Positions 4,883 through 59,414 of a stretch of 64,000 nucleotides of DNA are shown here, piece after piece. Below the pieces are notes generated by a model. It ran no database searches, was not told the DNA's origin, and was given only the letters and a program-made list of their open reading frames with translations. Location: the NCBI GenBank assembly GCA_001805445.1, contig MHGF01000003.1, positions 248,429 through 312,428 on the forward strand. The letters are read 5' to 3'. Origin of the DNA: Omnitrophica WOR_2 bacterium GWF2_43_52 (GTDB taxonomy: Bacteria > Omnitrophota > Gorgyraeia > Gygaellales > UBA12090). Position 1 is the stretch's first letter. Each line of letters opens with the position of its first letter. A program made the position numbers and the translations under genes.

Positions 4883-5695
4883 ATGTATTGCGCATTCTAT
4901 GGCTTCAAAGAAAAGCCTTTCAACGTCACCAGTGACCCCTCCTTCTTTTTCTCAAGTAAAAAACATAGAGAGGCTATTGCCTGCTTATCCTATGGCATTA
5001 AGGAACGGAAAGGCATTATGACGGTTACCGGTGAAATCGGAACAGGAAAAACCACCTTATGCCGCAGCCTTTTAAGGCAATTAGACAAATCGGTCAAAAC
5101 CGCGGTCATTCTCAATCCCTATTTTTCTGACGTGCAATTACTGGAACTCATTGTTCAGGATTTCGGGATTAAGATTACAAAACGCTCGCGGCTGCACATT
5201 GTCAACGAGCTTAACGCCTTCCTCATTCGCGAATCGGCACAAAACAATAACGCGGTGATTATCATTGATGAAGCGCAAAACCTCACGGTGAGGCAATTAG
5301 AGCAAATACGGCTTCTTTCTAATCTTGAAACGGATAAAGAAAAACTTTTGCAAATTATCCTTATAGGCCAACCTGAACTAAGGGAAAAACTCAATCTCCA
5401 TCAATTACGCCAAATAAAACAACGCGTCATGGTAGATTATCATATAGAGCCTCTTGATCAGGATGAACTAACACAGTATATCCGCCACCGCCTTAGTATT
5501 GCCACCCAATCACATAGCGTCAAAAAACTTAGTTTTAATGATACCGCGGTAGCATCAATTTTCGCGTTTTCTCAAGGCGTGCCGCGGCTTATCAATTTAA
5601 TCTGCGAAAGAGCGCTTCTCTTAAGCTTTGTTCAAGAAAAAAACACAATAACCGAAACAATTATTGCCAACTGCATCAACGATATTAAACTTTAA
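4883..5695 (+). CDS. ExeA/GspA-like AAA ATPase (MshM family)
   Basis: Walker A GEIGTGKTT, Walker B IIIDEAQNL, overall ExeA-like layout. Start moved to an internal ATG at 4883, because the upstream part of the ORF overlaps the PilZ gene on the other strand and has no homology. Confidence 0.75.
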   Translation: MYCAFYGFKEKPFNVTSDPSFFFSSKKHREAIACLSYGIKERKGIMTVTGEIGTGKTTLCRSLLRQLDKSVKTAVILNPYFSDVQLLELIVQDFGIKITKRSRLHIVNELNAFLIRESAQNNNAVIIIDEAQNLTVRQLEQIRLLSNLETDKEKLLQIILIGQPELREKLNLHQLRQIKQRVMVDYHIEPLDQDELTQYIRHRLSIATQSHSVKKLSFNDTAVASIFAFSQGVPRLINLICERALLLSFVQEKNTITETIIANCINDIKL

Positions 5696-5708
5696 AGAAA
5701 GGGGCCCG

Positions 5709-6230
5709 ATGAGCATAATTTATGATGCCTTAAAAAAAACACAGAACATTGACCCAAACTCCCCACTAAGCAGGCAAGAGCTTCCGGGACAACAGCAGGC
5801 GGCTCCTTCTGAAAACAAGACTCCTCCTAAAAAACCGGGATGGCTAGCTATGGGGATCGTTATTATCCTTCTTCTTTCGGGCTATCTTTTCATACAGAAA
5901 ACAGGCATTCTTTCTGCCGGCAAGTCAACGCATACTAAGTCAAAGGAGAATTTCTTTCAGGCACTTTTTAAATCCCGCAAGGAAGGAAAAAACACCAAAC
6001 AGACTTTATACCCTCCCGCAACGCCTGCTCCGGAAAGAACCTACCCTAACGATCCTATGCGCCTTGTTCTTGAAGGAATCATGATTTCTAACGATAACAA
6101 TACCGCGCTTATTAACGGGCAGGTCTGTATTGTTGGGGATACTATTGAAGGGGCACTGATCGAGGCAATAAACGAAAAGGAAGTACATCTCTCCTATCAA
6201 GGCCAGAAAATAACGCTAAAGAATAAATAA
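5709..6230 (+). CDS. GspB/ExeB-like membrane protein with a C-terminal T2SS-B-like domain
   Basis: Immediately downstream of the exeA-like gene. Single TM helix (GWLAMGIVIILLLSGYLFI). C-terminal LINGQVCIVGDTIEGALIEAI...V.L resembles the GspB C-terminal domain. RBS aaggggcc before the ATG at 5709. Confidence 0.5.
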   Translation: MSIIYDALKKTQNIDPNSPLSRQELPGQQQAAPSENKTPPKKPGWLAMGIVIILLLSGYLFIQKTGILSAGKSTHTKSKENFFQALFKSRKEGKNTKQTLYPPATPAPERTYPNDPMRLVLEGIMISNDNNTALINGQVCIVGDTIEGALIEAINEKEVHLSYQGQKITLKNK

Positions 6231-46042: not shown

Positions 46043-47125
46043 TTATACCTGGTTTAAACTTTCAAAACGGATATCACCTTCGCTTAATGGCTTAAGGCGC
46101 GCCGTCATTTTTCCTTCTTGAGCCACACAAGGCTCTTTCAATAAATCTTTCTCAAAATATTTTAAGGTATCAATCCCCGCCCGGCAATTGCCGCCAATCG
46201 CAGCGGTAAGATGAATAAGGGAAAATAGCCCGATGCCGGATTCAAATAAAGAGCTCACTACAATTTGTATGCCGCTTTTCTTAGCCTCATCTGCCATCGC
46301 AAGCGTCTTTCTTATGCCTCCTAGGAGTGTAGGTTTTAATACCCAGGCCTTTACCCCTTCACGTATTTTGACTACCTTGTCTCCTTCTGAAAGAAGAGAT
46401 TCATCTAAGGCGACAGTAATGCCTGTTTTATGAAAAAATTCAGGTATCTTTTCTACCTCTTTAAAAGGCTCTTCTATGTATTCAATCTGCTTTGGTTCAA
46501 TCGCGCTTGCAAAATACAGGGCATCATCATAACTCCACCTTTGATTCACATCCAAATGTATACGCGCACGATTATTCACCAGCGCCAAAACCTCATTGAC
46601 GCGGGTTATATCTTCTTTCACCTTGCCGCCTGCCTTCACTTTTATTGATTGAAATCCCTTCAAAAGCAAATCGTTAACCGCCTCTTTAAGAGGCTCTTCT
46701 TCCTGAAGCAGCCCGTTAACCATAATGGCAGAGCTTGGAGATGTAGCCCAAAGATACGACAGGGGCTTTTGCAGCTTAAGCGCTATCGCGTTATAGACAA
46801 CTGCTTCCACGCCAAAACGAACTTCAGGAATAAGCTGGAATGAATCTATCATCTTAAACAACTCGTTAGACTCATCCGGCAGTTCTTGCAAGGTAAAACT
46901 TTTTTTAAATTCCTTAAGATTTTTGACATATGCTTCTATTTCTCTATCGTCAAATCCTTTAAGAGGAGCAATCTCGCCAAATCCCTGCCACTGGTTATCC
47001 AGCGTCAAAAAAAGTATAATCCCCTCACGTAAGCGTAATTGGTTTCTCCCATGAATTAAAACAGGAGATTTAAAAGGCAGGCTGTAGCGGTAAATCTTTA
47101 AGGAAGTGACTTTCACAGTATCCAA
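46043..47125 (-). CDS. menC: o-succinylbenzoate synthase (enolase superfamily)
   Basis: Mandelate racemase/muconate lactonizing enzyme-like layout with K-x-K and D/E/D metal ligands. Men-cluster context. Confidence 0.75.
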   Translation of the reverse strand: MDTVKVTSLKIYRYSLPFKSPVLIHGRNQLRLREGIILFLTLDNQWQGFGEIAPLKGFDDREIEAYVKNLKEFKKSFTLQELPDESNELFKMIDSFQLIPEVRFGVEAVVYNAIALKLQKPLSYLWATSPSSAIMVNGLLQEEEPLKEAVNDLLLKGFQSIKVKAGGKVKEDITRVNEVLALVNNRARIHLDVNQRWSYDDALYFASAIEPKQIEYIEEPFKEVEKIPEFFHKTGITVALDESLLSEGDKVVKIREGVKAWVLKPTLLGGIRKTLAMADEAKKSGIQIVVSSLFESGIGLFSLIHLTAAIGGNCRAGIDTLKYFEKDLLKEPCVAQEGKMTARLKPLSEGDIRFESLNQV

Positions 47126-47997
47126 CCCAGGGAAAAAAGAAGGCTGTAAATAACCAGGAGTTTTCCGGTAAAACTCAATACCTTGTTAAGCGAAGGGCCG
47201 TCAGTTTTGTTAAGGACAACCTGTATGCTGGGAATAGCAATAAAGGCGATTACAGAAGCCACTATTATTTTGGAATGTTCTTTGGTAAGAAGGTAAAGAT
47301 ATACGGGAATGCTTGAGGCAAAAAGAATTGAGGCTAGGTATTCGCTTTGCGCGAAGCGTTTGCCAAAGCGCACGGCTAAGGTGCGTTTTCCGGTTAACGC
47401 GTCTGTATGCATATCCCGGTAATTATTCACGCAAAGCATTGAAATTGAAAGCGCCCCAACCCCCAACCCTGCCAGGAATGCCGCACTACTCCAAGAAAAC
47501 GACTGCACATAATAAGTCCCGGCCACGGCAACCGGCCCAAAGAAAATAAAAACAAAGAATTCCCCCAGGCCGATATATCCAAGCGGTTTTGGGCCCGCGG
47601 TATACAATATCCCTGAGGCAATGGATAAAATGCCAATAATGATAATAGGCAAGCCGCCTCTAGCTACCAAATAAAGCGATACCACCACCGCCAACCCAAA
47701 GACAAAAATAAAGCCCCTCTTTACTGCTTCGGGGCTTAATAATCCTGACTGAGTTACCCGCGTCGGCCCGATACGCTCTACGGTATCGGCTCCTTTCTTA
47801 AAATCAAAATAGTCATTGGCAAGATTCGTCCCTATCTGAATCAAAAGCGCGCACACAAGGCAAAAGAACGCGCTTAAAAGATGGAATACTCCGTCCCCAT
47901 AGGCCATTGCCGCGCCTATGACAACCGGCGCCACAGCCGCAGGAAGCGTCTTTAGCCGGCAGGCCATCTGCCAGATTTTTATACCATTACTTTTCAC
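47113..47997 (-). CDS. menA: 1,4-dihydroxy-2-naphthoate octaprenyltransferase
   Basis: UbiA-family polytopic membrane protein with NDYFD motif (ANDYFDFKKGAD). Confidence 0.8.
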   Translation of the reverse strand: MKSNGIKIWQMACRLKTLPAAVAPVVIGAAMAYGDGVFHLLSAFFCLVCALLIQIGTNLANDYFDFKKGADTVERIGPTRVTQSGLLSPEAVKRGFIFVFGLAVVVSLYLVARGGLPIIIIGILSIASGILYTAGPKPLGYIGLGEFFVFIFFGPVAVAGTYYVQSFSWSSAAFLAGLGVGALSISMLCVNNYRDMHTDALTGKRTLAVRFGKRFAQSEYLASILFASSIPVYLYLLTKEHSKIIVASVIAFIAIPSIQVVLNKTDGPSLNKVLSFTGKLLVIYSLLFSLGWIL

Positions 47998-48011
47998 GTA
48001 CGATAACCGTA

Positions 48012-48263
48012 TTAGCGATATGCCTCTTTTCTGTGCTTAAGCCTATAGATAAAAACTTCTTTTGCCTTATCGTCTATGCGATAGAGCAGCCTATAGCTGC
48101 CAATCCTCACCCTATACCCATCTTCATTAGTGAGCTTAAGTGCCCCGTATGGCCGGGGATTATTGGCTAAACGCACAATTTCATCTTTTGCTGCATTAAA
48201 AATTTTCCCTTGCAGGCGATCAAGGTCTTTTTGAGCTTGCGGCAAAATCTTTATCCTATACAT
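48012..48263 (-). CDS. RelE/ParE-family type II toxin
   Basis: 83 aa with the RelE/StbE-like pattern (KILPQAQKDL ... YRLLYRIDD ... VFIYRLKHRKE). Confidence 0.8.
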   Translation of the reverse strand: MYRIKILPQAQKDLDRLQGKIFNAAKDEIVRLANNPRPYGALKLTNEDGYRVRIGSYRLLYRIDDKAKEVFIYRLKHRKEAYR

Positions 48264-48491
48264 TTAGCCTGATCTTTTTCTTAAATACTCTTCTAAGCTA
48301 ACGGCTTTTCCTTCTTCCGCGCGTAACTTCTTTAAATCCAACAAATCCTCATTCAACTCTTCACGGGCAATCTGTTCCTCTAAGGCCTTCTCGACAAAGA
48401 AACCCTGCTTTATCCCATGCTCCAGGCAGAATTTCTTTAGCCTGTTGACAAGTTTGGAATCAATCTTTACCGCATACGATACCTTGTTCAT
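48264..48491 (-). CDS. type II antitoxin (RelB/ParD-like) paired with the downstream toxin
   Basis: 75 aa, immediately upstream of the toxin and adjacent to it (stop at 48264, toxin start at 48263). Helical, acidic C-terminus. Confidence 0.6.
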   Translation of the reverse strand: MNKVSYAVKIDSKLVNRLKKFCLEHGIKQGFFVEKALEEQIAREELNEDLLDLKKLRAEEGKAVSLEEYLRKRSG

Positions 48492-48647
48492 TCCTTATCC
48501 ACCTCCAGATAAACTATATCATATAAAGTTTTATATTTCAAGAAAAAGTTTACTAAAGAAAACTTCTATCATTCCATAGAATCTGAATAATCGGCTTTGA
48601 ATAAGCCGATAGCCAATTTTGGGAAGAAATTATTTCTCAGGTTGTTT

Positions 48648-51600
48648 TTAACTTAGCGAATCAATGATGACCAGCGCCTCTTTTAGCTCGGGAGAGCTTT
48701 CTCGGGCGGCTTCTTCTTCCAGCTTCATAATATCCGCCAGGCAGACCAGCAAATCATCCGCCTGCTCATCCAATTCACCCTTCTGCGCGCAGGCGGCAAC
48801 CAGTTCTTTAACCCGACTTCCCGATGGAATAATGCCGGAGGCGGCCATATTCCTTATTTGGGCAAGCTCGGCTACGGTATCCATCCCCTCAAGCGCTGCC
48901 GCGCTTATCCGTGGCAGGTTAAAATCTAAACCCCGAAAACTTCCCATCGGCTGAATAGTCATAGGCAGAGCGCGGAAGTCAATACCGCCGGTTTTATCCG
49001 GAGCATTTTGCATTGAAGAACTAGCTGTTTCATAGGCAAATCCAAACTTTTCGGCAATACCTTGATCGATACTCCCTATTATCGTTGTCCCTAAACCTGT
49101 CCTCTTTAAAATATAAACATCCTCTCCCTTAAGATTTTTATTAGGTTCACTCTTAACCCAGTTAATTATTTCTGCAATTTTTGCGTCTGTCATCGTTTTC
49201 ATTTTCTCATAGACTGCGGCATACGCTTCTTTTAATGCTCGATAACTAGGCTCTTCCATATAATTTTCATCGTCTCTACCAGGCCCGGCAAGAAAATTAC
49301 GCTTTTCTACTAATTCTATCGTTTTCCTCTCTTCTTCTGTAAGTACTAGCCCATATAGGATCATCTGAAGCGTCTTTTTTAACAACTCTTCATTAAAAGG
49401 CCGCATTATCTCATATCTTGTTGTGTCGCCATAGTAATAATCTTCTACTCCACCTATCACAAGCATTCCTTCGCTAAAATTAACGGTAACTTCTGCCTCT
49501 CCGGGAGGAAGGCCTGGATCATAGTCATAGTCGAAAAATACAGAACCAACATCCGTGACAACTCCTGTTGATAAAGCTTCTTTCACCTTGTCCTTATCAA
49601 TATTTGGCTTAAATATGTTATAATTTTCCATTATCTTAGTTAATACCATAATTACAGCAGTATACGCCTCATCTGCCGATTTGGGAATATAAATATCCTT
49701 TTCACTATTCGTGTATTGTGAAAAAGACGAAATAGTTGGTTTATAGATAAATTCGAGTTTCTCAACAATGCCTCGATTAATAGTTCCGATTACCATTATT
49801 CCTGAGCCTGTTTCCTTAAGGATCCGGGCATCTTTTCCTTTAAAATATTTATTAGGCTCACTCTTAATCCAATTAATTATTTCAGTAATTTTAGCGTCTG
49901 CCAAAAGTCCGATTTCATTTTTTATTTTATAATAAGTGTCTCGCAATTTTTGCTCGGCCGCTTCCTCGGCTTCTGACGGCATACTATCGCTGCCATCACC
50001 AGCAAAAAGATTCTCTTCTTCTACAGCGTTAATCAACCATTTCTCATCTTCTGAAAGAGACATGTTATACCAACCTAAATCAAGAAAAATTTTACGAAGC
50101 TGACTTCTTAGCAGATTCTCATTTAAAGGCTTTATTACTTCATATGTTACGCTATCAATATTGTAGTAATATTTCTTGCTATCCAATACAATAACTCCTT
50201 CGCTAAAATTAACAATAACTTTGCTATCCCAAGTATAAAGAGACGTTTCAGAATCATAGTCTAAAAAGACATAACCAACATCCGTGGCAACTCTTGTTGA
50301 TAAAGCTTCACTCACCTTGTCCTTATCTATCACTGGCTTAAAGTTGTTGTATTTTCTCGTTATTTCGGTTAATACCATAATTACAGCAGCATATGCCTCA
50401 TCTGCCGATTTGGGAATATAAATATCCTTTTTACTATTGGAAAATTGAACCGAAGACGAAGCACTAAGGCGCAACTTGTTTATTATCTCCAGCATAGGAT
50501 TTATGTACGGAGTGTTTTTCTTTAAAAGTGCGTTGCCTTTTATTAGAGGTAGCAAGAGATCGCTACTAAATTCTACATCTTCTTTTTTCACTCCATCGCT
50601 GTATATTTCCGTAATACTTACATAATCTTTATTTTCAATATCTGACAATTTAACTGTTTGATAACCCCATACCTCGCCATGGCCCGGTGTTTTTTGCTGG
50701 TCCTCTATCCACTCTTTAAATTCCCGCTCGGTTTTGTTTTGACGTTCAGCATCAATCTCTTCCTTTATTCTTTTTACCTGATTCCATTCTTTCTCACTCA
50801 AGATATATGCGTATAAAGAACGAAATTCATTATTTGGGCCTTTATCATCGTCATTCTGAAACTGCCCTTCTTGGCCGATTAAAACTAATTTATTATCTAA
50901 TTTTTCCTCTATCGCATCCAAGCCCAATTCTTGAAGGATTTCCTCCTCTCCAGCTTCCTCATATGTCATACCGGAAACTACATGACCACCTAATATGGAA
51001 AATTTTTTTGACTCCGCTTTATTATGCACTCGTCTTTGCAGCAATAATTTCCCGTCTGGCGTAAAAACAAAGGCATTGGCAGTCCTATGTCTTAACCCAA
51101 ATATGTGCGTAAAACCAGCTTCGGTAACTCCTACGGCTTTATCATCCTCACCTACTATATCAGTTAACTCACCCTTAAATTTCTTGACAAACTTTGTGTC
51201 CTTAGCTTGTTTGCCTCTATCCTGCCTTATCCCTTCTATCACTTTATCAATAGTGATATATTGCTCTAAATTTACACCATTCGCAGTTAAAGAGCCTTTT
51301 AATTCTTGCAAGTGGTCCCTATAGAAATTCAAAATATCATTAAGCTCTACAGGTGTTACAGTTCCTATATTTTGAGATAACCATTTGGCTTGAGCAACGG
51401 CTTTCTCCAGATGTATCGCCGATGAGCCTATGAACTGCAATCTGACAGCACTTACATGCTGCAATGAAATAGACAACATAGGTTGGCGGCTTCCTCTTCC
51501 TTCTGGTTTACTCTCAAAAATCTTTTCTCCTCGCTTAATTTTAAAAATACCAAATAATGGCTCGTTATTCTGATATGCTGACTTAACCTTCTGAAAGGTA

Positions 51601-53924
51601 AACTCCTCAAGTTTTAAATCCTTTAACATCTGTACTTGTGCAGGTTTTAATTGTGCTGCTATTTTATCGCCTTTCTCGTTTAACTCTGCAAATTCAATCC
51701 ACCATTTTATGTCTTCATTGTTTTTATCTTCAGTCTCAGCAACAAAAGCAAGCATACAGAACATCTTCAGGATAAGATCAAGCTTCTCTTGAGGATTATT
51801 AATGCCTTTAATAATGCTCTCGGTAAAGGCTAAACCATAATCAAGAGCATCTAAATTCTCGCCTAATTGCTTTTTGAATACGGTTGCATCCTTTGAACCA
51901 AGGGCTTTATATAATTCAGATAACTTCCCGGATATTAACTGCACATCTCCATACCCAAGTCTAGAGAGCTTTCGCAATCTATAGAGTAAAAACTCAGCTT
52001 TTCTTTGTTGTAATGTCATAAGATTAGTATCTATGTAATATTCTGCTCTCTCGTTATCCATCATCCCGATCCCGTCACAAAAAGTAATAATGGCTAACGC
52101 CCCAAGCAGTTCATCCTTATTATCTTTTAATTCGTTCGGCAACTTATCTAGAAGCCTTAACAAGCGATGCGGGGTTCTTTCGCCGAAAAACATAGTGCCC
52201 ACCGCTACATGCTGGCCAATAAGCCATTTTACTTTTTCAATGAAAAGTATATCTTTTTGATAATAAACTGGCAGATTATTACCAATCCAAGCAGCCCCTT
52301 TATCTTCATGGCCTACAGTGCCATCATGAGTCCCAATATCATGCAACAAGACAGTTAAAAAGATTAATTCCTTATCTTTAGGATTAGAAAATAGGTTGCT
52401 GAATAATTGAATGTATTTATTTATAGCCACAGGGTCCATTAACCCATTTCTAGCTTTATTAATGCCAGCAACATTATTACTCCTAACCATCTCTATCGTC
52501 TCTATAACTTCAAGGGTGTGCTTAAACATATTACTATTCCATTTTTTAACACCCTCCAGCTTATCAAAATCAGGGAACACCTTTCCTATTGCGCTTATTC
52601 CAGCCTCGGATTTTTCAGCCATGCTCAAAATATCTGCATAAATATTTGTAGATATGCGCAAGGTATTTTGCAAATTTTGAAAATTCTTAATAGAGCTATC
52701 TGATTCTTTATCAGAATCTTCTATCGACGAAGACACTGCAACAGCTGGTTGCAGGCTTATATTCAGCAGATTGGTGGCAACGCCACTTATTTTTATGCCC
52801 GGCAATTTATCAAAAATATCATTGTCAAATATAGCGCCGTTTTCAGTATTAATCGCGCTACTAGCCCAGCTTATCCCGCCGCTTACATAAGCTCTACGCA
52901 CTACCTGGCCCGTAGGGGTGTAAACCTGCTCCTTGAGGTTGTATTCACCCTTAGAGAAGGATTGCTGGTATTGCTTGAAATACTCCGTCTTAGACCAGGG
53001 TTCTTGGGAAGTTAAATTGGTGAGATTTTGGGTATTGATAAGTGAGGCGTAGGCGCCGGGTTTGCCGCTGAAACGCGATTTAAACCATCTGGAGAGGATA
53101 AGAGAATAATAGACCTGCCTTAAAGAGGCGTATCTCTTGGCCGAGTTCACCTCTCTGGTAAGCTTGGGAATAATCAATTCCTTAATTAGCTGGGTTGAGT
53201 ATTCGTTAAGCTCTTTTAGCCTGAGGTCGGAAAAGCGGTAACCGCTTCCCACACCCCCGCGGTGTGGGTTCAACACCGCGGGGGTGTGCTCGGTTAGATA
53301 GTCTTCTTCCAGCATTACCTTTAGGACAGCCTTATACACATAGGCGCTGTCTTTAGACTCCCGGACGATTATCTCACCTGGCACTATCCAGGGACGGGTG
53401 AGGGTAGGAATACTTATATTCTCACTTCCATAAAGTTCTCCCGCCTTTTTATACAGCTTATCCCAATAGGCCTTGCCTTCAGAAGTTTGGGGAGAAGTAA
53501 AGCTGGCAGTGTCCTTCTTTAATTGCAGGTCTGCCTCAAGCATAATCCTGCCTACATCGGTCTTTTCTAAGTACGAGTCTATAATTTGGTCTTCCGAATC
53601 CGGTCTTAAGTTTACCCAGAACATATCATCCGGCAGGGCTACTCCCACAAGAAAATAGCTCAATAAATCCTTGGCTTCCTCTTTAGCCCTTGTATCTTCA
53701 AGATTAGCCAAATCCCCCCTATCCAAGAGTAGCTTAAAATGATCACTGGCAGTGTCATAGGAAAAATAACGCAGATGCACGGGGCGAAATTTATCCAGTA
53801 ACAAGCTCCCTGCGGCCTTTGATAAGTAATTTGCGACATTCAAATCAACTGCTACCTGGGCAAAGCTTGCTTGCTGAAACAGTAGGCCAATGCTTAAAAC
53901 CAGTGAAAGTATTTTGCGCGACAT
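48648..53924 (-). CDS. giant exported multidomain protein (1758 aa): signal peptide + HD phosphohydrolase domain + NUDIX hydrolase domain + two tandem ~243-aa modules of unknown function
   Basis: N-terminal Sec signal MSRKILSLVLSIGLLFQQASFA-QV. HD motif H...LLHDIGTHDG...H...D (DNA ~52000-52500). NUDIX box GGHVVSGMTYEEAGEEEILQELG preceded by RTANAFVF...GKLLLQRR (DNA ~50700-51080). Tandem duplicated modules each start ...S.KDIYIPKSADEAY(A/T)AVIMVLT. GGAGG RBS 7 nt upstream of the ATG. Confidence 0.7.
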   Translation of the reverse strand: MSRKILSLVLSIGLLFQQASFAQVAVDLNVANYLSKAAGSLLLDKFRPVHLRYFSYDTASDHFKLLLDRGDLANLEDTRAKEEAKDLLSYFLVGVALPDDMFWVNLRPDSEDQIIDSYLEKTDVGRIMLEADLQLKKDTASFTSPQTSEGKAYWDKLYKKAGELYGSENISIPTLTRPWIVPGEIIVRESKDSAYVYKAVLKVMLEEDYLTEHTPAVLNPHRGGVGSGYRFSDLRLKELNEYSTQLIKELIIPKLTREVNSAKRYASLRQVYYSLILSRWFKSRFSGKPGAYASLINTQNLTNLTSQEPWSKTEYFKQYQQSFSKGEYNLKEQVYTPTGQVVRRAYVSGGISWASSAINTENGAIFDNDIFDKLPGIKISGVATNLLNISLQPAVAVSSSIEDSDKESDSSIKNFQNLQNTLRISTNIYADILSMAEKSEAGISAIGKVFPDFDKLEGVKKWNSNMFKHTLEVIETIEMVRSNNVAGINKARNGLMDPVAINKYIQLFSNLFSNPKDKELIFLTVLLHDIGTHDGTVGHEDKGAAWIGNNLPVYYQKDILFIEKVKWLIGQHVAVGTMFFGERTPHRLLRLLDKLPNELKDNKDELLGALAIITFCDGIGMMDNERAEYYIDTNLMTLQQRKAEFLLYRLRKLSRLGYGDVQLISGKLSELYKALGSKDATVFKKQLGENLDALDYGLAFTESIIKGINNPQEKLDLILKMFCMLAFVAETEDKNNEDIKWWIEFAELNEKGDKIAAQLKPAQVQMLKDLKLEEFTFQKVKSAYQNNEPLFGIFKIKRGEKIFESKPEGRGSRQPMLSISLQHVSAVRLQFIGSSAIHLEKAVAQAKWLSQNIGTVTPVELNDILNFYRDHLQELKGSLTANGVNLEQYITIDKVIEGIRQDRGKQAKDTKFVKKFKGELTDIVGEDDKAVGVTEAGFTHIFGLRHRTANAFVFTPDGKLLLQRRVHNKAESKKFSILGGHVVSGMTYEEAGEEEILQELGLDAIEEKLDNKLVLIGQEGQFQNDDDKGPNNEFRSLYAYILSEKEWNQVKRIKEEIDAERQNKTEREFKEWIEDQQKTPGHGEVWGYQTVKLSDIENKDYVSITEIYSDGVKKEDVEFSSDLLLPLIKGNALLKKNTPYINPMLEIINKLRLSASSSVQFSNSKKDIYIPKSADEAYAAVIMVLTEITRKYNNFKPVIDKDKVSEALSTRVATDVGYVFLDYDSETSLYTWDSKVIVNFSEGVIVLDSKKYYYNIDSVTYEVIKPLNENLLRSQLRKIFLDLGWYNMSLSEDEKWLINAVEEENLFAGDGSDSMPSEAEEAAEQKLRDTYYKIKNEIGLLADAKITEIINWIKSEPNKYFKGKDARILKETGSGIMVIGTINRGIVEKLEFIYKPTISSFSQYTNSEKDIYIPKSADEAYTAVIMVLTKIMENYNIFKPNIDKDKVKEALSTGVVTDVGSVFFDYDYDPGLPPGEAEVTVNFSEGMLVIGGVEDYYYGDTTRYEIMRPFNEELLKKTLQMILYGLVLTEEERKTIELVEKRNFLAGPGRDDENYMEEPSYRALKEAYAAVYEKMKTMTDAKIAEIINWVKSEPNKNLKGEDVYILKRTGLGTTIIGSIDQGIAEKFGFAYETASSSMQNAPDKTGGIDFRALPMTIQPMGSFRGLDFNLPRISAAALEGMDTVAELAQIRNMAASGIIPSGSRVKELVAACAQKGELDEQADDLLVCLADIMKLEEEAARESSPELKEALVIIDSLS
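49000..50470 (-). repeat. in-frame tandem duplication (two ~728-bp units plus a partial third start) inside the giant gene
   Basis: A 35-nt identical stretch, gcctcatctgccgatttgggaatataaatatcctt, starts at 49667 and at 50395 (728 bp apart). Flanking protein sequence is ~60% identical over ~243 aa between the two units. Confidence 0.8.
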
Positions 53925-54056
53925 AATTCGCCTCCTTACTATTGTCTGACATTAAACTATAATAGTGTCAGAGATTTCATCTCCCATTTACTTTTTTCAT
54001 TAATAAGCTGTTTATTAAAGTATTAACTAGTTATCACTGAAAAAGCGTCTTTTAAA

Positions 54057-54135
54057 CACGAATTCCCACGAATTACACACTAATCATCACGAATACAACG
54101 ACGAAGTAATTCGTGTGTATTTGTGTCTATTCGTG
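54057..54135. promoter_or_regulatory. helically phased array of five CACGAAT heptamers (three direct, two inverted) upstream of the giant gene
   Basis: CACGAATT at 54057 and 54067, CACGAATA at 54088, inverted AATTCGTG at 54108 and TATTCGTG at 54128. Spacing 10, 21, 20, 20 bp. Lies in an AT-rich 420-bp intergenic region. Confidence 0.5.
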
Positions 54136-54343
54136 CAAAATAAAGGTTTTTCAGCGGTAACTAATTACCTATAAAATAAAAAAACCGGAATGCCGACCCT
54201 ATTATATTTTCGTGGCAATCCGGTATATATAACCGTATTGGGCGTTTCGCACCTCCATGCGAAAACGCTTTCTTATTTTAAATTCTATTTAAAGTTTACC
54301 ATAAAAGTGCATAATGTCAAGTTTTTTATGATTAATCAAACCC

Positions 54344-54574
54344 CTATAAATTATTAAGCATGGATATATATTCCTCTTTGCTTATTCCTAATACACGCAG
54401 ATTATTCAAAATGATAAAAACTGGAATATCCTTAATGGCTGGGATAACTATGGGCCGCTTTAGATTTGCCTTACGGTAGATTCGGTGATCCCCTTTCTGC
54501 CTGACAAATTCACAACCGATATACCTTAAGAACTTATCAAATCTTCTGTAGTCTACAGGATTTAAGCGGGACAC
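54344..54574 (-). CDS. hicA: HicA-like toxin (YcfA family mRNA interferase), probable GTG start
   Basis: FDKFLRYIGCEFVRQKGDHRIYRK ... PIVIPAIKDIPVFIILNNLRVLGI matches the HicA pattern (GFxxxRQKGSHxxxxxP ... G). The 105-aa ORF is too long for HicA. A GTG at 54574 gives 77 aa. Confidence 0.55.
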   Translation of the reverse strand: MSRLNPVDYRRFDKFLRYIGCEFVRQKGDHRIYRKANLKRPIVIPAIKDIPVFIILNNLRVLGISKEEYISMLNNL

Positions 54575-54864
54575 GGCAGTCGTACTTCTTCCTGGGTTTG
54601 CCCTATATATACGGGCGGTAACCACATTTTCTGCGGATGGCCTACTTTCTTCCAACCACACTCAAGAAGAACATCCTCAATGGTTCCCATCTTGTCGGTT
54701 TCTTCAAGAAAAAGCTGAAGCGCATCCTCAAACCTTCCTTTAGCCTGTTCCTGAGTATCTCCACAAGTGGAAAGGTCCAATGCAGGACTATAAGCAATAA
54801 ACTTTTCACCTTCTCTATAAAACACTACATTTAAGCTGACCTTCTGGAATTTTAACTTTGCCAT
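54562..54864 (-). CDS. hicB: HicB-like antitoxin (UPF0150 N-terminal domain only)
   Basis: KFQKVSLNVVFYREGEKFIAYSPALDLSTCGDTQEQAKGRFEDALQLFLEE matches the HicB N-domain. It overlaps the downstream hicA-like start. Confidence 0.55.
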   Translation of the reverse strand: MAKLKFQKVSLNVVFYREGEKFIAYSPALDLSTCGDTQEQAKGRFEDALQLFLEETDKMGTIEDVLLECGWKKVGHPQKMWLPPVYIGQTQEEVRLPCPA

Positions 54865-54925
54865 CTTTTCTCCCTTCATAAATAAGGATACCATATTCGC
54901 ATTAAAAAATCAATATTTTGGAATA

Positions 54926-55753
54926 TCATGGCCGTTTGGGGAAGCGGGAGAAGTCGGGTTTTCTTTTTGCTACAAAGGCGTTGCGGCCTTCCTGGCCTTC
55001 TTCGGTCATATAAAAAAGCATAGTGGCATTGCCGGCTAATTCCTGCAGGCCTGCCTGGCCGTCGCAGTCCGCGTTTAAGGCTGATTTAAGGCAGCGAATA
55101 GCGATTGGTGAATTCGCCAGGATTTCCCGGCACCACTTAATGGTTTCTTTTTCCAAATCCTTTAAGGCTACAACCTTATTCACTAACCCCATGGTGAGGG
55201 CTTCCTTAGCGTTATACTGGCGGCATAAAAACCAGATTTCCCGCGCCTTCTTCTGGCCCACCACCCGCGCCAAATAAGAGGCGCCATAGCCGCCGTCAAA
55301 TGAGCCTACCTTTGGCCCGGTTTGGCCGAAGATAGCGTTGTCCGCGGCAATAGTAATGTCCGCCATAAGGGCTAAAATATTCCCCCCGCCAATCGCATAA
55401 CCTGCAACCATGGCAATTATCGGTTTTGGGCAAGTCCTCATCTGGCGCTGGAAATCAAGCACATTCAACCGCTCAACGCCTTTTCCATCCTTATAGCCGG
55501 CATCTCCTCGTATCTTCTGATCACCGCCTGAACAAAAGGCGCGGCTGCCTTTACCGGTGAGAATTATTACCCCGATTTTCTCATCATTACGCGCATCGTC
55601 TAATGCTTTGGACATCTCAATCACGGTAAGAGGGCGAAAGGCATTATGCACCTGGGGGCGATTTATGGTTATTTTGGCGATTTCCTCTGACTTTGCATAT
55701 TCTATATCGGTAAACTGAAGCATTTTTGTCCATTTAGCTCTTTGCTTCTTCAT
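54926..55753 (-). CDS. menB: 1,4-dihydroxy-2-naphthoyl-CoA synthase
   Basis: Crotonase-fold MenB similarity (FCSGGDQK ... GYAIGGG), 275 aa. Confidence 0.9.
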
Positions 55754-55788
55754 TTTCTAAGTCTCCTAATTAATGCCAGGCATTGTTC

Positions 55789-57552
55789 CTACCTTTTAAG
55801 ACAAATTCGGATCGTATTTTGTAGAGAACATATCGCCTTGTAATTTTCCTCGCGATTAGCTTCTATTTCAATAATGGTTGCTCCATTCTTCCCTAAGGCC
55901 TGGCGGTAAGCATCAGTGAATTCCTTTACTACCTTTACCTTGACATAGCCTATCTGAAACATCTTTGCTGCCATCTCAAAACTAAAGGTATGTGCCGCGG
56001 CAAAATATTTCTCAAAGACATTCGGGAATCCGGAAATCGGTAAAAATGAGAAAATCCCGCCTCCGCGGTCATTGATTACGATAATGACAAACGGAGTTTT
56101 CAATTCCTTTAGAAGCGCCAGAGAATTAAGATCGTGGAGAAACGCCAAATCCCCAAGAAGCGCCACTACCGGTTTAGCTAAGCCGTCAGCAAACCCTATT
56201 GCCGAAGCAAGGTTACCGTCAATACCGCTTGCCCCCCGGTTAGCTCCCACACAGCACAAATTCTTATTCACCCCGGCAAACATGTCCATAATCCGAATAG
56301 GCATACTATTAGCCAAAAAGAGCCCTGTTTCCTGAAAGGGTATCTGGCTTATAGCCTGCGCCAAGGCATCAGGAGTAAGCGCTGTTGTTTCTTTCACCCG
56401 CGCGAAAAGGCGTTGAGAAACGCGTTCTGATGCCTTTTGTAACCGCGCGGTAAAATCATTTCTCTTGCGCTGTTTCAAAAACTGCTTGATAGCCCCGCAA
56501 AAATAGGAAACTGAACATTCAACTCGCGTTGTCAGGCAATGTAAAGGGTCATTACGCAAGGGATGATTGAGCACGGTAATATAAGGAAGAGGAGTAATCT
56601 TTTTAATAAACTCATACCAGCGGCTTGAGGTTAATCGTCCTCCCAGATGCAGAACGCCATCAGGTCTATAGCGAGTTACTAAGGCAGGCTCAAGCAGGAG
56701 CTGGTCAAAATAATGAATGATTGAGGCATCTTTACTCTTCAGGCGTAATCCAGAAGTTATGTCAGCAAAAACCGGCCATTGCAGGGTGCGCGCAAGGGCC
56801 AGGACACTCTTTTCCTCTCCACTCTTTAATTTCCCCACGGCGATAATTCCCCGTTTCATCGCGCTAAGCTCTTGAGCGACATTCTTAAGCTCCTTTAATG
56901 ACAACCTTTTCTCATAAGGCTTATAACGCGTAAAGGGGAGGGAATTTTTTAGCCAATGGCTAAGGGACTTTACGTTCCCGGGAGTGAATCCTTTTTCCTT
57001 TATCGGGGTAAGAGGCTCGCGGAACATACAATTAATATGCACAGGGCCGGGATAATTGGCGCGCGCCCGATATACCGCTTGATCAATCGTAGTTAACACC
57101 GCCTCCAAAGGCATCTCTTTTGATGGGCAAGGCATATCAAAGAAAAAACGCGCGTAATCGCCAAAAATCTTCACCTGGTCAATGGTTTGGTTGGCGCCGG
57201 TATTACGCAGTTCAGGGGGGCGGTCAGCCGTCAGGATAATCAAGGGAAGCTTTTTCTTAGATGCCTCAATAATCGCCGGGTAAAAATTGGCAACCGCTGT
57301 GCCTGAGGTCGCGATAAGACAGGCAGTTTTGCCGCTTGAGGCAACATAACCTAAGGCATAATAGGCTAAGCCCCGCTCATCAAAATGGATACAGCTTTTG
57401 GCGCGCTTATTCTCGGCAACCGCGACTACCAGCGGCCCTGAACGCGAACCGGGAGCAATACAAAAATACTCAACCCCGCAGCGCGTTAGCTCCTCAATAA
57501 TAAGCCTTCCCCAGAGATGGTTTATATTTTTTGCTTTAGAAAAACTAACCAT
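55789..57552 (-). CDS. menD: 2-succinyl-5-enolpyruvyl-6-hydroxy-3-cyclohexene-1-carboxylate synthase
   Basis: TPP-enzyme layout (GSRSGPL ... GDLAFLHDLN). Start placed at Met37 (MVSFSK) to avoid overlapping menF. Confidence 0.8.
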   Translation of the reverse strand: MVSFSKAKNINHLWGRLIIEELTRCGVEYFCIAPGSRSGPLVVAVAENKRAKSCIHFDERGLAYYALGYVASSGKTACLIATSGTAVANFYPAIIEASKKKLPLIILTADRPPELRNTGANQTIDQVKIFGDYARFFFDMPCPSKEMPLEAVLTTIDQAVYRARANYPGPVHINCMFREPLTPIKEKGFTPGNVKSLSHWLKNSLPFTRYKPYEKRLSLKELKNVAQELSAMKRGIIAVGKLKSGEEKSVLALARTLQWPVFADITSGLRLKSKDASIIHYFDQLLLEPALVTRYRPDGVLHLGGRLTSSRWYEFIKKITPLPYITVLNHPLRNDPLHCLTTRVECSVSYFCGAIKQFLKQRKRNDFTARLQKASERVSQRLFARVKETTALTPDALAQAISQIPFQETGLFLANSMPIRIMDMFAGVNKNLCCVGANRGASGIDGNLASAIGFADGLAKPVVALLGDLAFLHDLNSLALLKELKTPFVIIVINDRGGGIFSFLPISGFPNVFEKYFAAAHTFSFEMAAKMFQIGYVKVKVVKEFTDAYRQALGKNGATIIEIEANREENYKAICSLQNTIRICLKR

Positions 57553-57562
57553 ATATTTTCCC

Positions 57563-58954
57563 TTACGATGAAAGGATTCGGAGGAAAATGCGCTTTTTCT
57601 CTTCAATTTCCTGCCATTCCTCATCCGCGGTTGAGCCTTCCACAATACCGGCACCGGCAAATAAATTCACTGTATTTGCCCGCATCAACGCGCAGCGCAG
57701 GGCAACCGTAAAATCAACACTGGTAGTACCGATATATCCGAAAGCTCCCGCGTACCATCCCCGGTCAAAAGGCTCTACATTGATCAGTGCCTGGAGTACT
57801 TGCTCTGTCGGAGTTCCTCCTACCGCGGGTGTTGGATGAAGCAGAGAGAGAATCTGGGCATCGTCTGTTTCATCTTTCAGGATTCCTTTAAAACGGGTAA
57901 TTAAATGCTGGCCGCTTGAAGCCTTAACTACTGTTGGGGCGTCATCGCTGCTAAAGGAAACGCATAATTTTTGAAAAGCATTTTTAATTGCCTCTGCTAC
58001 AATTTTATGTTCCAAGGCGTCTTTATCAGAAGAAAGCAGTTTTTTCTCAAATGCGGCATCTTCTTCTCCCGAGGCTCCCCGAGGCATTGTCCCTGCAAGG
58101 GCCTCGCTTTCAATCGCGCGGCCGTGACGCGTAAATAAGCGTTCCGGAGATGCTCCAAAAAAGGCATTCCCTGCTTGAGGCTGAAAGTAATAATGAAAGG
58201 AACGGGGCGTTTCTCGCACAAGCTTTCTGAATACAACCAGCGGCTCACTATCAGCAGTAAGCTCTATACATGTTTTGCGCGCTAATACAATCTTCTGATA
58301 CGCCATTTTACCAGATGGCTGAACATGCTCACTGAATAATTGCCGCCACAGGGCCTTATCAGGGAGCATGCGCACGCCCCGTATCGCGGGAATAACCTCA
58401 TTGCCTGATGGTTTTTGCGCAAACGAAAGATTATCAAGCGCGCTCAGATATTCCTCGATTAATGCGCGCGTAACATTCGCAGCTACAATATTACAGGCAA
58501 AAACCGTCTTTTCGTTTTTTGTTATGATTTCAAACTGGGGCAGTAAAAAATAATACGCGCCAAACTCTTTCCATTCTTTTTCCTGTTTTCTTGCGCCACT
58601 ATTCACCCGAGGAGGATAAAAACCTATTCCTCCATAGTAATGCGGCTCATTCCCTGCCAAAGAGAGCTTTTCATGAATAGCTTCGAAAAGTGTATTGTAG
58701 CCAGAGATTGCCTGGCTTCGGATACTATCCGCGGCGCCAAGGCCTGCCATTTCAAAGGTGTTATCCCTGTTAGACCAATATACTTTATACTGGCTTCCTT
58801 GAGCCATAAGCCAGTCAAGGCAGTTAATCCCAGGACAAGGCACTTCAAGGCGAATAATTCCATGAGTATGGATAGGCTGGCCTTCCGAAAGAAGGCTGCG
58901 AATATTGCGCGCTATGCGATCCTTAAAAACCTGGAACAAAATATCGGAAGAATC
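57563..58954 (-). CDS. menF: isochorismate synthase
   Basis: Chorismate-binding C-terminal motifs (PTPAVGG ... GWYAGAFGY ... RCA). Start placed at an internal Met (MDSSDIL) downstream of the STAS gene stop. Confidence 0.7.
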   Translation of the reverse strand, partial: DSSDILFQVFKDRIARNIRSLLSEGQPIHTHGIIRLEVPCPGINCLDWLMAQGSQYKVYWSNRDNTFEMAGLGAADSIRSQAISGYNTLFEAIHEKLSLAGNEPHYYGGIGFYPPRVNSGARKQEKEWKEFGAYYFLLPQFEIITKNEKTVFACNIVAANVTRALIEEYLSALDNLSFAQKPSGNEVIPAIRGVRMLPDKALWRQLFSEHVQPSGKMAYQKIVLARKTCIELTADSEPLVVFRKLVRETPRSFHYYFQPQAGNAFFGASPERLFTRHGRAIESEALAGTMPRGASGEEDAAFEKKLLSSDKDALEHKIVAEAIKNAFQKLCVSFSSDDAPTVVKASSGQHLITRFKGILKDETDDAQILSLLHPTPAVGGTPTEQVLQALINVEPFDRGWYAGAFGYIGTTSVDFTVALRCALMRANTVNLFAGAGIVEGSTADEEWQEIEEKKRIFLRILSS

Positions 58955-59003
58955 CATAGTATCATTTGTATGCTTGAAACATAGAGCATCAGGAAAACTG
59001 AAC

Positions 59004-59414
59004 TTATATTTTTTTATTTTTACCGGCTTCCCGATAACGCTTCTCTTCCTTAACCTGGTTCTGAATGATTCCAAAGTAACGGTCAGCATCTTCTCTGTTT
59101 TCAAATATCTGCACATCAGGCAGGGCGTTAACAATTTTAAACACCTTATCAATATGTTCGGGGACACTCGACATCATCATAACCACGCCTTGAGCTTTAG
59201 CCGCTTTACGGATTTCCAGGATCGCGCTAATTCCCATACTGCTTATATAATCCAAGCGCTCAAGGTCAAGCACTATGGCTTTTAACGTCGTACTTAACTG
59301 CGCCTGCGCCTTTTTTCTGAATTCCTCGTACGTCTGAGTATCCAATGAACCGCTCAAAGATATAATCACCACATTCTCTTCTTCCTTCTTTGCTATACTT
59401 ATTTTCAATCCCAT
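59004..59414 (-). CDS. STAS domain anti-sigma factor antagonist (SpoIIAA/RsbV-like)
   Basis: 136 aa STAS fold pattern with the conserved phospho-serine context (DLERLDYISSMGISAI). Confidence 0.8.
   Translation of the reverse strand: MGLKISIAKKEEENVVIISLSGSLDTQTYEEFRKKAQAQLSTTLKAIVLDLERLDYISSMGISAILEIRKAAKAQGVVMMMSSVPEHIDKVFKIVNALPDVQIFENREDADRYFGIIQNQVKEEKRYREAGKNKKI

Follow-up and report, generated by a model that had tools for sequence, protein, structure and literature searches.

A probable IS5-type MITE carrying a mirrored array of phased heptamers in the 5' leader of an Omnitrophota giant gene

What is a regularly spaced cluster of CACGAAT heptamers doing in front of a giant gene of Omnitrophica WOR_2 bacterium GWF2_43_52, and does it belong to that gene at all? 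The question arises from a first-pass annotation of contig MHGF01000003.1 (assembly GCA_001805445.1), which described five such heptamers, three direct and two inverted, at 10/21/20/20-bp spacing, and suggested that a dimeric regulator, perhaps HicB or a RelB-like antitoxin, might bind them cooperatively on one face of the DNA. We have followed up this suggestion in the window, by which we mean the whole stretch of DNA that was analyzed (64 kb; positions 248,429 to 312,428 of the contig, forward strand), and in related sequences from other genomes and metagenomes.

The giant gene encodes a protein identical to proteins of GCA_003499645.1 and of other assemblies. Its features and those of its leader are the following:

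48648..53924, minus strand: giant gene of 1758 aa, with a signal peptide, the family-defining N-terminal domain and a NUDIX domain; an element is probably inserted in its 5' leader
54179..54287, minus strand: structured leader RNA with an intrinsic terminator at its end, conserved upstream of giant-family genes
54293..54320, minus strand: sigma-70-like leader promoter (TTGACA, 16 nt, TG-n-TAAACT), conserved in homologues

The N-terminal ~400 aa of the protein belong to an Omnitrophota family of very large size (at least 855 proteins at E<=1e-5 among the 8,000 candidates scored), within which this domain is 50-70% identical and is fused to partners that include phosphoglycerate kinase, enolase, triose-phosphate isomerase, phosphoglucomutase, PEP synthase, guanylate kinase, MraZ-like proteins and others. 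The gene sits in an insert within a menaquinone operon (window 47113-59167; menF-menD-menB, insert, menA-menC-menE), which it shares with hicBA (54344-54894) on its upstream side and a ParE-type toxin-antitoxin pair (between 47997 and 48648) on its downstream side. hicBA ends at its own intrinsic terminator, upstream of the array.

The cluster itself is real, and had been under-described. The two strands of the window hold nine exact copies of CACGAAT (shuffle mean, 5.5), five of which fall in 54057-54135, and the chance of at least five copies per 79 bp is ~1e-13 by a Poisson estimate, or ~2e-10 when corrected for all windows. Three exact copies lie on the plus strand, starting at 54057, 54067 and 54088, and two on the minus strand, at 54109-54115 and 54129-54135. 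Two further units with one mismatch each, CACTAAT at 54078 (plus) and CACAAAT at 54119-54125 (minus), raise the array to seven heptamers separated by steps of 10, 11, 10, 21, 10 and 10 bp, and since they fill the 20-21-bp gaps of the original description, the true period is 10-11 bp rather than 20-21 bp. The helical phasing reported in the first-pass annotation is consequently genuine and tighter than supposed, whereas its longer period reflected two missed units; likewise, its plus-strand starts were right, whereas its inverted units (54108 and 54128) each took in the base before ATTCGTG. The array occupies the stretch 133-211 bp upstream of the ATG of the giant gene (53924, minus strand), approximately where the annotation had placed it, and is laid out as two converging arms of four direct and then three inverted units:

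54057..54094, plus strand: array arm 1, with CACGAAT at 54057, CACGAAT at 54067, CACTAAT at 54078 and CACGAAT at 54088, head-to-tail, in steps of 10, 11 and 10 bp
54095..54108, no strand: palindrome centre of 14 bp, ACAACGACGAAGTA, holding a degenerate GACGAAG at 54100
54109..54135, minus strand: array arm 2, with inverted units ATTCGTG at 54109, ATTTGTG at 54119 and ATTCGTG at 54129; a fourth unit is present in sister assemblies (11-bp indel)

In those sister assemblies of the same organism (L001-L005, L009, L010), the extra 11-bp unit is a CACAAAT, and the 4+3 layout of the window becomes a symmetric 4+4 array.

The array does not stand alone, and is enclosed in a larger structure with the following parts:

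54030..54161, no strand: whole non-autonomous element, a probable MITE, of 132 bp (143 bp in L001 and L021)
54030..54044, plus strand: terminal inverted repeat proximal to the giant gene, GTTATCACTGAAAAA; also found at the ends of IS5-family elements in L026 and L048
54147..54161, plus strand: terminal inverted repeat distal to the giant gene, TTTTTCAGCGGTAAC
54024..54029, no strand: target-site duplication TAACTA (gene strand TAGTTA), from flanking-hexamer comparison and alignment
54162..54167, no strand: target-site duplication TAATTA, with one mismatch to the other copy; the empty site is TAGTTA in L206 and TATTTA in L203

Inverted repeats of the form TTTTTCAG(Y)G(R)TAACTARTTA are present at exactly two places in the window, on either side of the array, against a chance expectation of 0.02; counted with their flanks (15 bp plus flanks), they are 21 nt long and lie at 54024-54044 and 54147-54167 only. 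The entire 132-bp block is an imperfect palindrome that as RNA folds into a long hairpin (-47.6 kcal/mol, z = -5.9), and no ORF is present in the element, be it the 132-bp form of the window or the 143-bp form found elsewhere. Because the element lies between the leader terminator and the ribosome-binding site, it falls within the 5' UTR of the giant gene. On the gene strand, no sigma-70 promoter was found within or downstream of it at the scan threshold.

How the array arrived can be judged from seven homologous genes of the giant family in other Omnitrophota, whose upstream regions were compared with the window. The search for the motif in front of homologous giant genes, which the annotation had itself proposed as a check, found neither CACGAAT nor a phased array upstream of any of the seven, the outcome that it had named as counting against its proposal. 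In two of these regions (L206 and L203), the sequence can be aligned with that of the window to the left and right of the element, and what is missing in between is precisely the element and a single hexamer (alignment A1), a pattern that marks an insertion. In this alignment, the window reads ...TTTTATAGG TAATTA (element) TAGTTA ATACTTTAATAAAC..., and L206 reads ...TTTTTTAGG TAGTTA AGACTTTAACAAAT..., also read as ...AGG TAGTTA AGACTTTAAC....

The ends of the element can be placed independently. Five independent contigs with an identical giant gene stop 126, 180, 202, 230 and 230 nt upstream of the ATG, distances that equal ~104 nt + k-1 for k = 21-23, 77, 99 and 127, all common assembler k-mers; the contigs thus break as a de Bruijn graph breaks at a repeat, whose boundary ~104 nt upstream is the end of the terminal repeat. 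Moreover, a metagenome scan with the terminal-repeat pattern recovered a second, identical copy of the element with different flanks (L021, from the same sample as L005), one side of which leads into an enolase gene and both sides of which carry TAATTA. The target hexamer at the enolase locus overlaps the -10 box of a TTGACT-N17-TATAAT promoter, so that this copy also lies in a 5' UTR, and in the same orientation as the giant-gene copy. These two, at the giant gene and at enolase, are the only copies seen of the heptamer-bearing subfamily. The contig L003 has a wholly different upstream flank, which begins exactly at the distal terminal repeat and is that of the L021 copy.

The same terminal repeats also enclose unrelated interiors at 38 metagenome loci, and one member of the family, ~101 bp long, has many copies within a single metagenome. 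Flanking hexamers are identical and in direct orientation in 20 of 35 repeat pairs, and include the non-palindromic TAGTTA, TAACTA, TAAATA and TAGATA, from which it follows that the true ends are the 15-bp GTTAYCRCTGAAAAA and that TAnnTA is the target-site duplication; the duplications in the window, TAACTA and TAATTA, differ at one base, which counts against the assignment. Full-length elements of 1.63 kb with the same ends occur in Omnitrophota metagenomes (L026 7149-8783 and L048 2107-3738). The ORF of the L048 element contains DUF772 and DDE_Tnp_1 and matches NF033578 (IS5-family transposase) at 292 bits, above the cut-off of 275, and that of the L026 element contains DUF772 and scores 240 bits, under the same cut-off. 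The autonomous IS5 partner was seen at the level of the same metagenome sample only. Neither the autonomous IS5 elements nor the other MITE subfamilies contain the heptamers, which identifies the array as cargo.

Terminal repeats, a target duplication, small non-coding size, occupation of multiple sites, an empty site and an autonomous partner with the same ends were accordingly all found, and by its sequence the element passes as a MITE on every point that sequence can address. We consider it probable that the 132-bp block is a MITE inserted in the giant-gene leader, and, when this identification is taken on its own, very probable. IS5-type MITEs would then be active in Omnitrophota, where they break assemblies. 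An IS5-family DDE transposase acting in trans would have recognized the terminal repeats of the element and mobilized it, and insertion may favor AT-rich, -10-like TAnnTA hexamers, a preference that would account for the position of both copies immediately in front of genes. The 4+4 CACGAAT palindrome would be carried as cargo, the same architecture being present without terminal repeats in other Omnitrophota spacers. Any effect on the giant gene, whether as a roadblock or as a 5' UTR hairpin, would be a by-product of insertion and not an ancestral control circuit, and the insertion might have been co-opted to regulate the gene.

Two observations on these copies are recorded here in their own right. 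In L003 (JGI 3300025152), the ftsH-side flank of the enolase-locus MITE is joined to the giant gene via the element, which is either an assembly chimaera or a genuine recombination between the two MITE copies. In L021, a ~120-bp unit is repeated in tandem ~2.5 times at 5640-5900, between a divergent upstream gene and the enolase promoter.

What, then, is the cargo? A scan of one genome per species (596 Gb) for three phased copies of ATTCGTG returned at least 117 loci from many phyla. Control heptamers in viral contigs gave 9 and 16 triple matches as against 11 for ATTCGTG, and the background of arrays of any heptamer, ~3 per 1.3 Mb, predicts hundreds of matches per heptamer in 596 Gb; for these two reasons the cross-phylum count was not used as evidence. 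The raw count does not exceed what tandem repeats give as background, and only variable spacers and inverted arms distinguish the arrays. Indeed, almost all control matches are perfect tandem repeats that lack an inverted partner, and among the CACGAAT matches listed the spacers are non-identical in 75 of 96 arrays, an inverted partner arm is present in about half (4+4 being the commonest combination), and one-armed arrays of direct repeats only are common. The step between units among the 117 loci listed is 10 nt in 343 cases, 9 nt in 53 and 11 nt in 49, and the gap between the two arms ranges from 1 to ~100 nt. The degenerate variants CACAAAT, CACTAAT and CACCAAT recur, and, of the arrays listed, 54 lie in spacers between tandem genes, 23 in convergent and 21 in divergent spacers.

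Arrays of CACGAAT with a 10-bp period, several per genome and often in two converging arms of ~4 units (L049-L165), were seen in Sulfuricella and other Proteobacteria, Tepidisphaerales, Anaerolineales, KSB1, Verrucomicrobiota, Bacteroidota and others. Within Omnitrophota the resemblance to the window array is close: ~13 loci from different species share the pattern CACGAAT-n3-CACGAAT-n4-xxCGAAT-n3-CACGAAT and its mirror image (4+4), though not the IS5 ends, and the arrays of this phylum mostly fill the spacers of co-directional housekeeping genes, from stop codon to ribosome-binding site. No IS5-type terminal repeats were found beside the arrays of other genomes. At one orthologous spacer in two species, between ilvB and ilvN (acetolactate synthase large and small subunits), the heptamers are identical at 55 of 56 positions (98%) and the spacers at 9 of 45 (20%), with flanking coding sequence at 68-73%. 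When all ORFs of the 117 listed array loci were clustered in search of a recurrent neighbor (transposase or regulator), generic response-regulator, kinase and ABC families were the only ones to appear. A literature search by heptamer sequence returned noise only, and, to our knowledge, none of the motifs of MraZ, CtsR, Spo0A, DnaA, ParB and LexA matches the heptamer.

Conserved heptamers separated by free 3-4-nt spacers fit sequence-specific protein binding on one face of the DNA, and to this extent the regulator proposed by the first-pass annotation may survive, as the binder of a repeat family, its link to the giant gene being unsupported. There is no complementarity between the spacers of one arm and those of the other, which suggests selection on the heptamer sequence at one-turn spacing and not on hairpin pairing. 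The array may then be a platform on which several subunits of one putative sequence-specific protein line up head-to-tail, one helical turn apart, in two converging arms. This is the reading of the heptamers that we tentatively favor, at somewhat less than an even chance.

The transcribed arms might instead act as RNA, forming a long interrupted hairpin that stabilizes the mRNA, is cleaved by RNase III or blocks the ribosome, and this reading, although unlikely, is a serious rival to the protein platform. It would make sense of the strong fold of the element, of the placement of both MITE copies in 5' UTRs in the same orientation, and of the position of most Omnitrophota arrays between co-directional genes, where they run from stop codon to ribosome-binding site. 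However, the mismatched arm spacers split any such hairpin into 7-bp helices interrupted by internal loops, selection appears to act on heptamer sequence rather than pairing, and a strict 10-nt period suits B-DNA better than an RNA hairpin; the frequency of one-armed arrays, which contain direct repeats only, and the wide range of the central gap (1 to ~100 nt) argue in the same direction.

A second mobile element is a decidedly unlikely alternative: here the heptamers would be subterminal transposase sites, and the 4+4 palindrome a minimal two-ended transposon nested in the IS5-type MITE. Multiple phased binding sites are a feature of the ends of Tn7, Mu and the eukaryotic hAT and CACTA elements, and the arms of the array, of four units each, converge like transposon ends and occur in several copies per genome, at non-orthologous sites and in several phyla. 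Yet no target-site duplication is visible at the arrays that lack terminal repeats, no pair of arrays was found flanking a coding gene, no transposase recurs nearby, and one array has been kept at an orthologous spacer in two species. Very unlikely, in our judgment, is a functionless minisatellite produced by replication slippage within a selfish element. Assemblies do differ by one 11-bp unit, as slippage would have it, and both the viral control counts (9 and 16 against 11) and the any-heptamer background (~3 per 1.3 Mb) are of the size that such repeats would give; but slippage would copy the spacers along with the heptamers, whereas the spacers differ within 75 of the 96 arrays listed, the heptamers far outlast the spacers at the orthologous ilvB-ilvN site (98% against 20%), and the control matches are nearly all perfect tandem repeats with no inverted partner.

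Lastly, a dedicated operator of the giant gene, bound cooperatively by a dimeric regulator that might be HicB or the RelB-like antitoxin, is highly improbable. In its favor, the units do share one helical face at 10-11-bp steps, the heptamers are selectively conserved in related arrays and the array lies between the promoter and leader and the giant-gene start codon. Against it, the array was brought in by transposition, to which the terminal repeats, the target duplication and the empty site all point, and it is missing in front of seven homologues; the identical copy in front of enolase has no toxin-antitoxin genes near it; in other genomes the arrays adjoin unrelated housekeeping genes and occur also in convergent spacers; and hicBA stops at its own terminator, upstream of the array. 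Antitoxins normally bind their own promoters; hicBA sits behind its own terminator, and neither the second copy nor the arrays of other genomes have toxin-antitoxin neighbors, so the suggestion of HicB or a RelB-like antitoxin as the binder is unsupported. Conservation upstream of homologues, restriction to promoters and a cognate regulator nearby were each sought, and none was found. On the sequences compared, the array is not a dedicated operator or ancestral control site of the giant gene. This removes a tempting false lead, as the array is not the control region of the giant gene and, from its genomic context, probably not the operator of an antitoxin.

A better candidate for regulation than the array is what the upstream regions of the giant family have in common, namely a promoter and a terminator-ended leader RNA without an Rfam match. 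This RNA, of ~100-110 nt, is made up of a hairpin with GGAGG in its loop, an invariant AAUGCCACGG and an intrinsic terminator; it might serve as a riboswitch, as an attenuator or as a small RNA. Pairing in the terminator stem, as judged by eye, is kept despite two-sided changes (CCGG/CCGG, CCGC/GCGG, CCAG/CUGG), although an RNAalifold run did not return the full stem, and the distance from terminator to ATG is 72-75 nt in four homologues. A covariance model recovers the leader at seven of eight giant-family loci, and found no copies beyond its training loci in 532 kb. In homologues, the leader RNA was located as follows:

L203, 9845-9951
L206, 491-599
L208, 1843-1926
L209, 1841-1961
L210, 1827-1927
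L211, 1827-1928

Nothing came near an Rfam gathering score in 53900-54400, which covers leader and array, or in 15 array loci. A known structured RNA as the identity of array or leader was accordingly rejected, with no match to a curated covariance model over the same regions.

Two further features of giant-gene upstream regions deserve mention. A 28-nt palindrome, TCTGACATTAAACTATAATAGTGTCAGA, at 53945-53972 closely precedes the ribosome-binding site of the giant gene and has no counterpart in the homologous leaders. In the closest homologue (P0002), the leader promoter is closely preceded by a gene for a 74-aa XRE-type HTH protein (L206 237-461); this gene parallels hicBA in the window, and small toxin-antitoxin or HTH genes may therefore be a repeated feature in front of giant-family genes. 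Neither MITEs nor riboswitches are mentioned in papers on Omnitrophota giant genes.

Several known systems resemble parts of this locus. The Correia or NEMIS elements of Neisseria are short, non-coding, multi-copy MITEs with terminal inverted repeats and a target duplication, which lie next to genes, are co-transcribed with them and form hairpins. The element described here is likewise short, non-coding, gene-adjacent, hairpin-forming and provided with terminal repeats and a target duplication, and it too has a candidate protein-binding cargo. It differs in its IS5-family ends, in a 6-bp TAnnTA duplication where theirs is TA, in a cargo of 4+4 phased heptamers as against their single IHF site, and in the two subfamily copies seen. 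An IHF site has been described in such small mobile sequences (PMC2229807). The BrickBuilt MITE of Porphyromonas gingivalis is always intergenic and near genes, with an interior made of a short tandem repeat of variable copy number (PMC4596501), and the MITE of the window is comparable in all of these respects; unlike the contiguous 23-nt direct repeats of BrickBuilt, which have no spacers (PMC4596501), it has 7-nt cores, free 3-4-nt spacers and converging arms. IS5-type ends, the TAnnTA duplication and mirrored phased heptamers set it apart from Correia and BrickBuilt alike.

There are also the IS5-family insertion sequences (NF033578) themselves: the element shares its 15-bp terminal inverted repeats with the 1.63-kb elements of L026 and L048, from which it differs in having no coding capacity and an unrelated interior. 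The 4+4 palindromes without terminal repeats are reminiscent of REP/BIME sequences and REPINs, in that they fill operon spacers, are palindromic, have many copies in a genome and are plausible binding sites of host proteins, whereas a REP is one GC-rich, imperfect palindrome, which varies from species to species and has no 10-bp periodic core. An assignment to REP/BIME or REPIN was rejected, as the units here are AT-rich 7-mers with a 10-bp period, and no RAYT-type (Y1) transposase was present among the neighboring genes. Finally, OmpR/PhoB-type operators and the 0A boxes of Spo0A (a 7-mer plus a 3-nt spacer) also present a core head-to-tail once per helical turn on one face, with a CGAA-containing heptamer. 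Those sites are promoter-specific, few per genome and served by known regulators, whereas the arrays occur in every intergenic type and are transposon-borne, so the resemblance would be one of mode of action only.

MITEs themselves are known; the combination of IS5-type ends, a 6-bp TAnnTA duplication and a conserved, mirrored array of phased heptamers is new. It is tempting to go further and regard 4+4 phased CACnAAT palindromes as a previously undescribed, Omnitrophota-wide and possibly cross-phylum class of intergenic repeats bound by a host protein, a putative oligomeric binder, one of which was captured by an IS5-type MITE and spread into 5' leaders; as a whole this proposal is speculative and should be taken as unlikely. 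Were it true, the MITE would wire new genes, here the giant gene and enolase, into the sphere of action of the heptamer-binding protein. The compact mirrored sequence of four CACGAAT units at 10-bp steps, with heptamers that appear to be under clear purifying selection in uncultured bacteria, offers a bait for such a DNA-binding protein. A further small palindromic repeat, CCTGCCTGCC(A/G)GCAGGCAGG, was seen in two Omnitrophota genomes, at ~4137-4160 of L096 and ~9750-9790 of L204, and the L096 copy sits inside a heptamer array.
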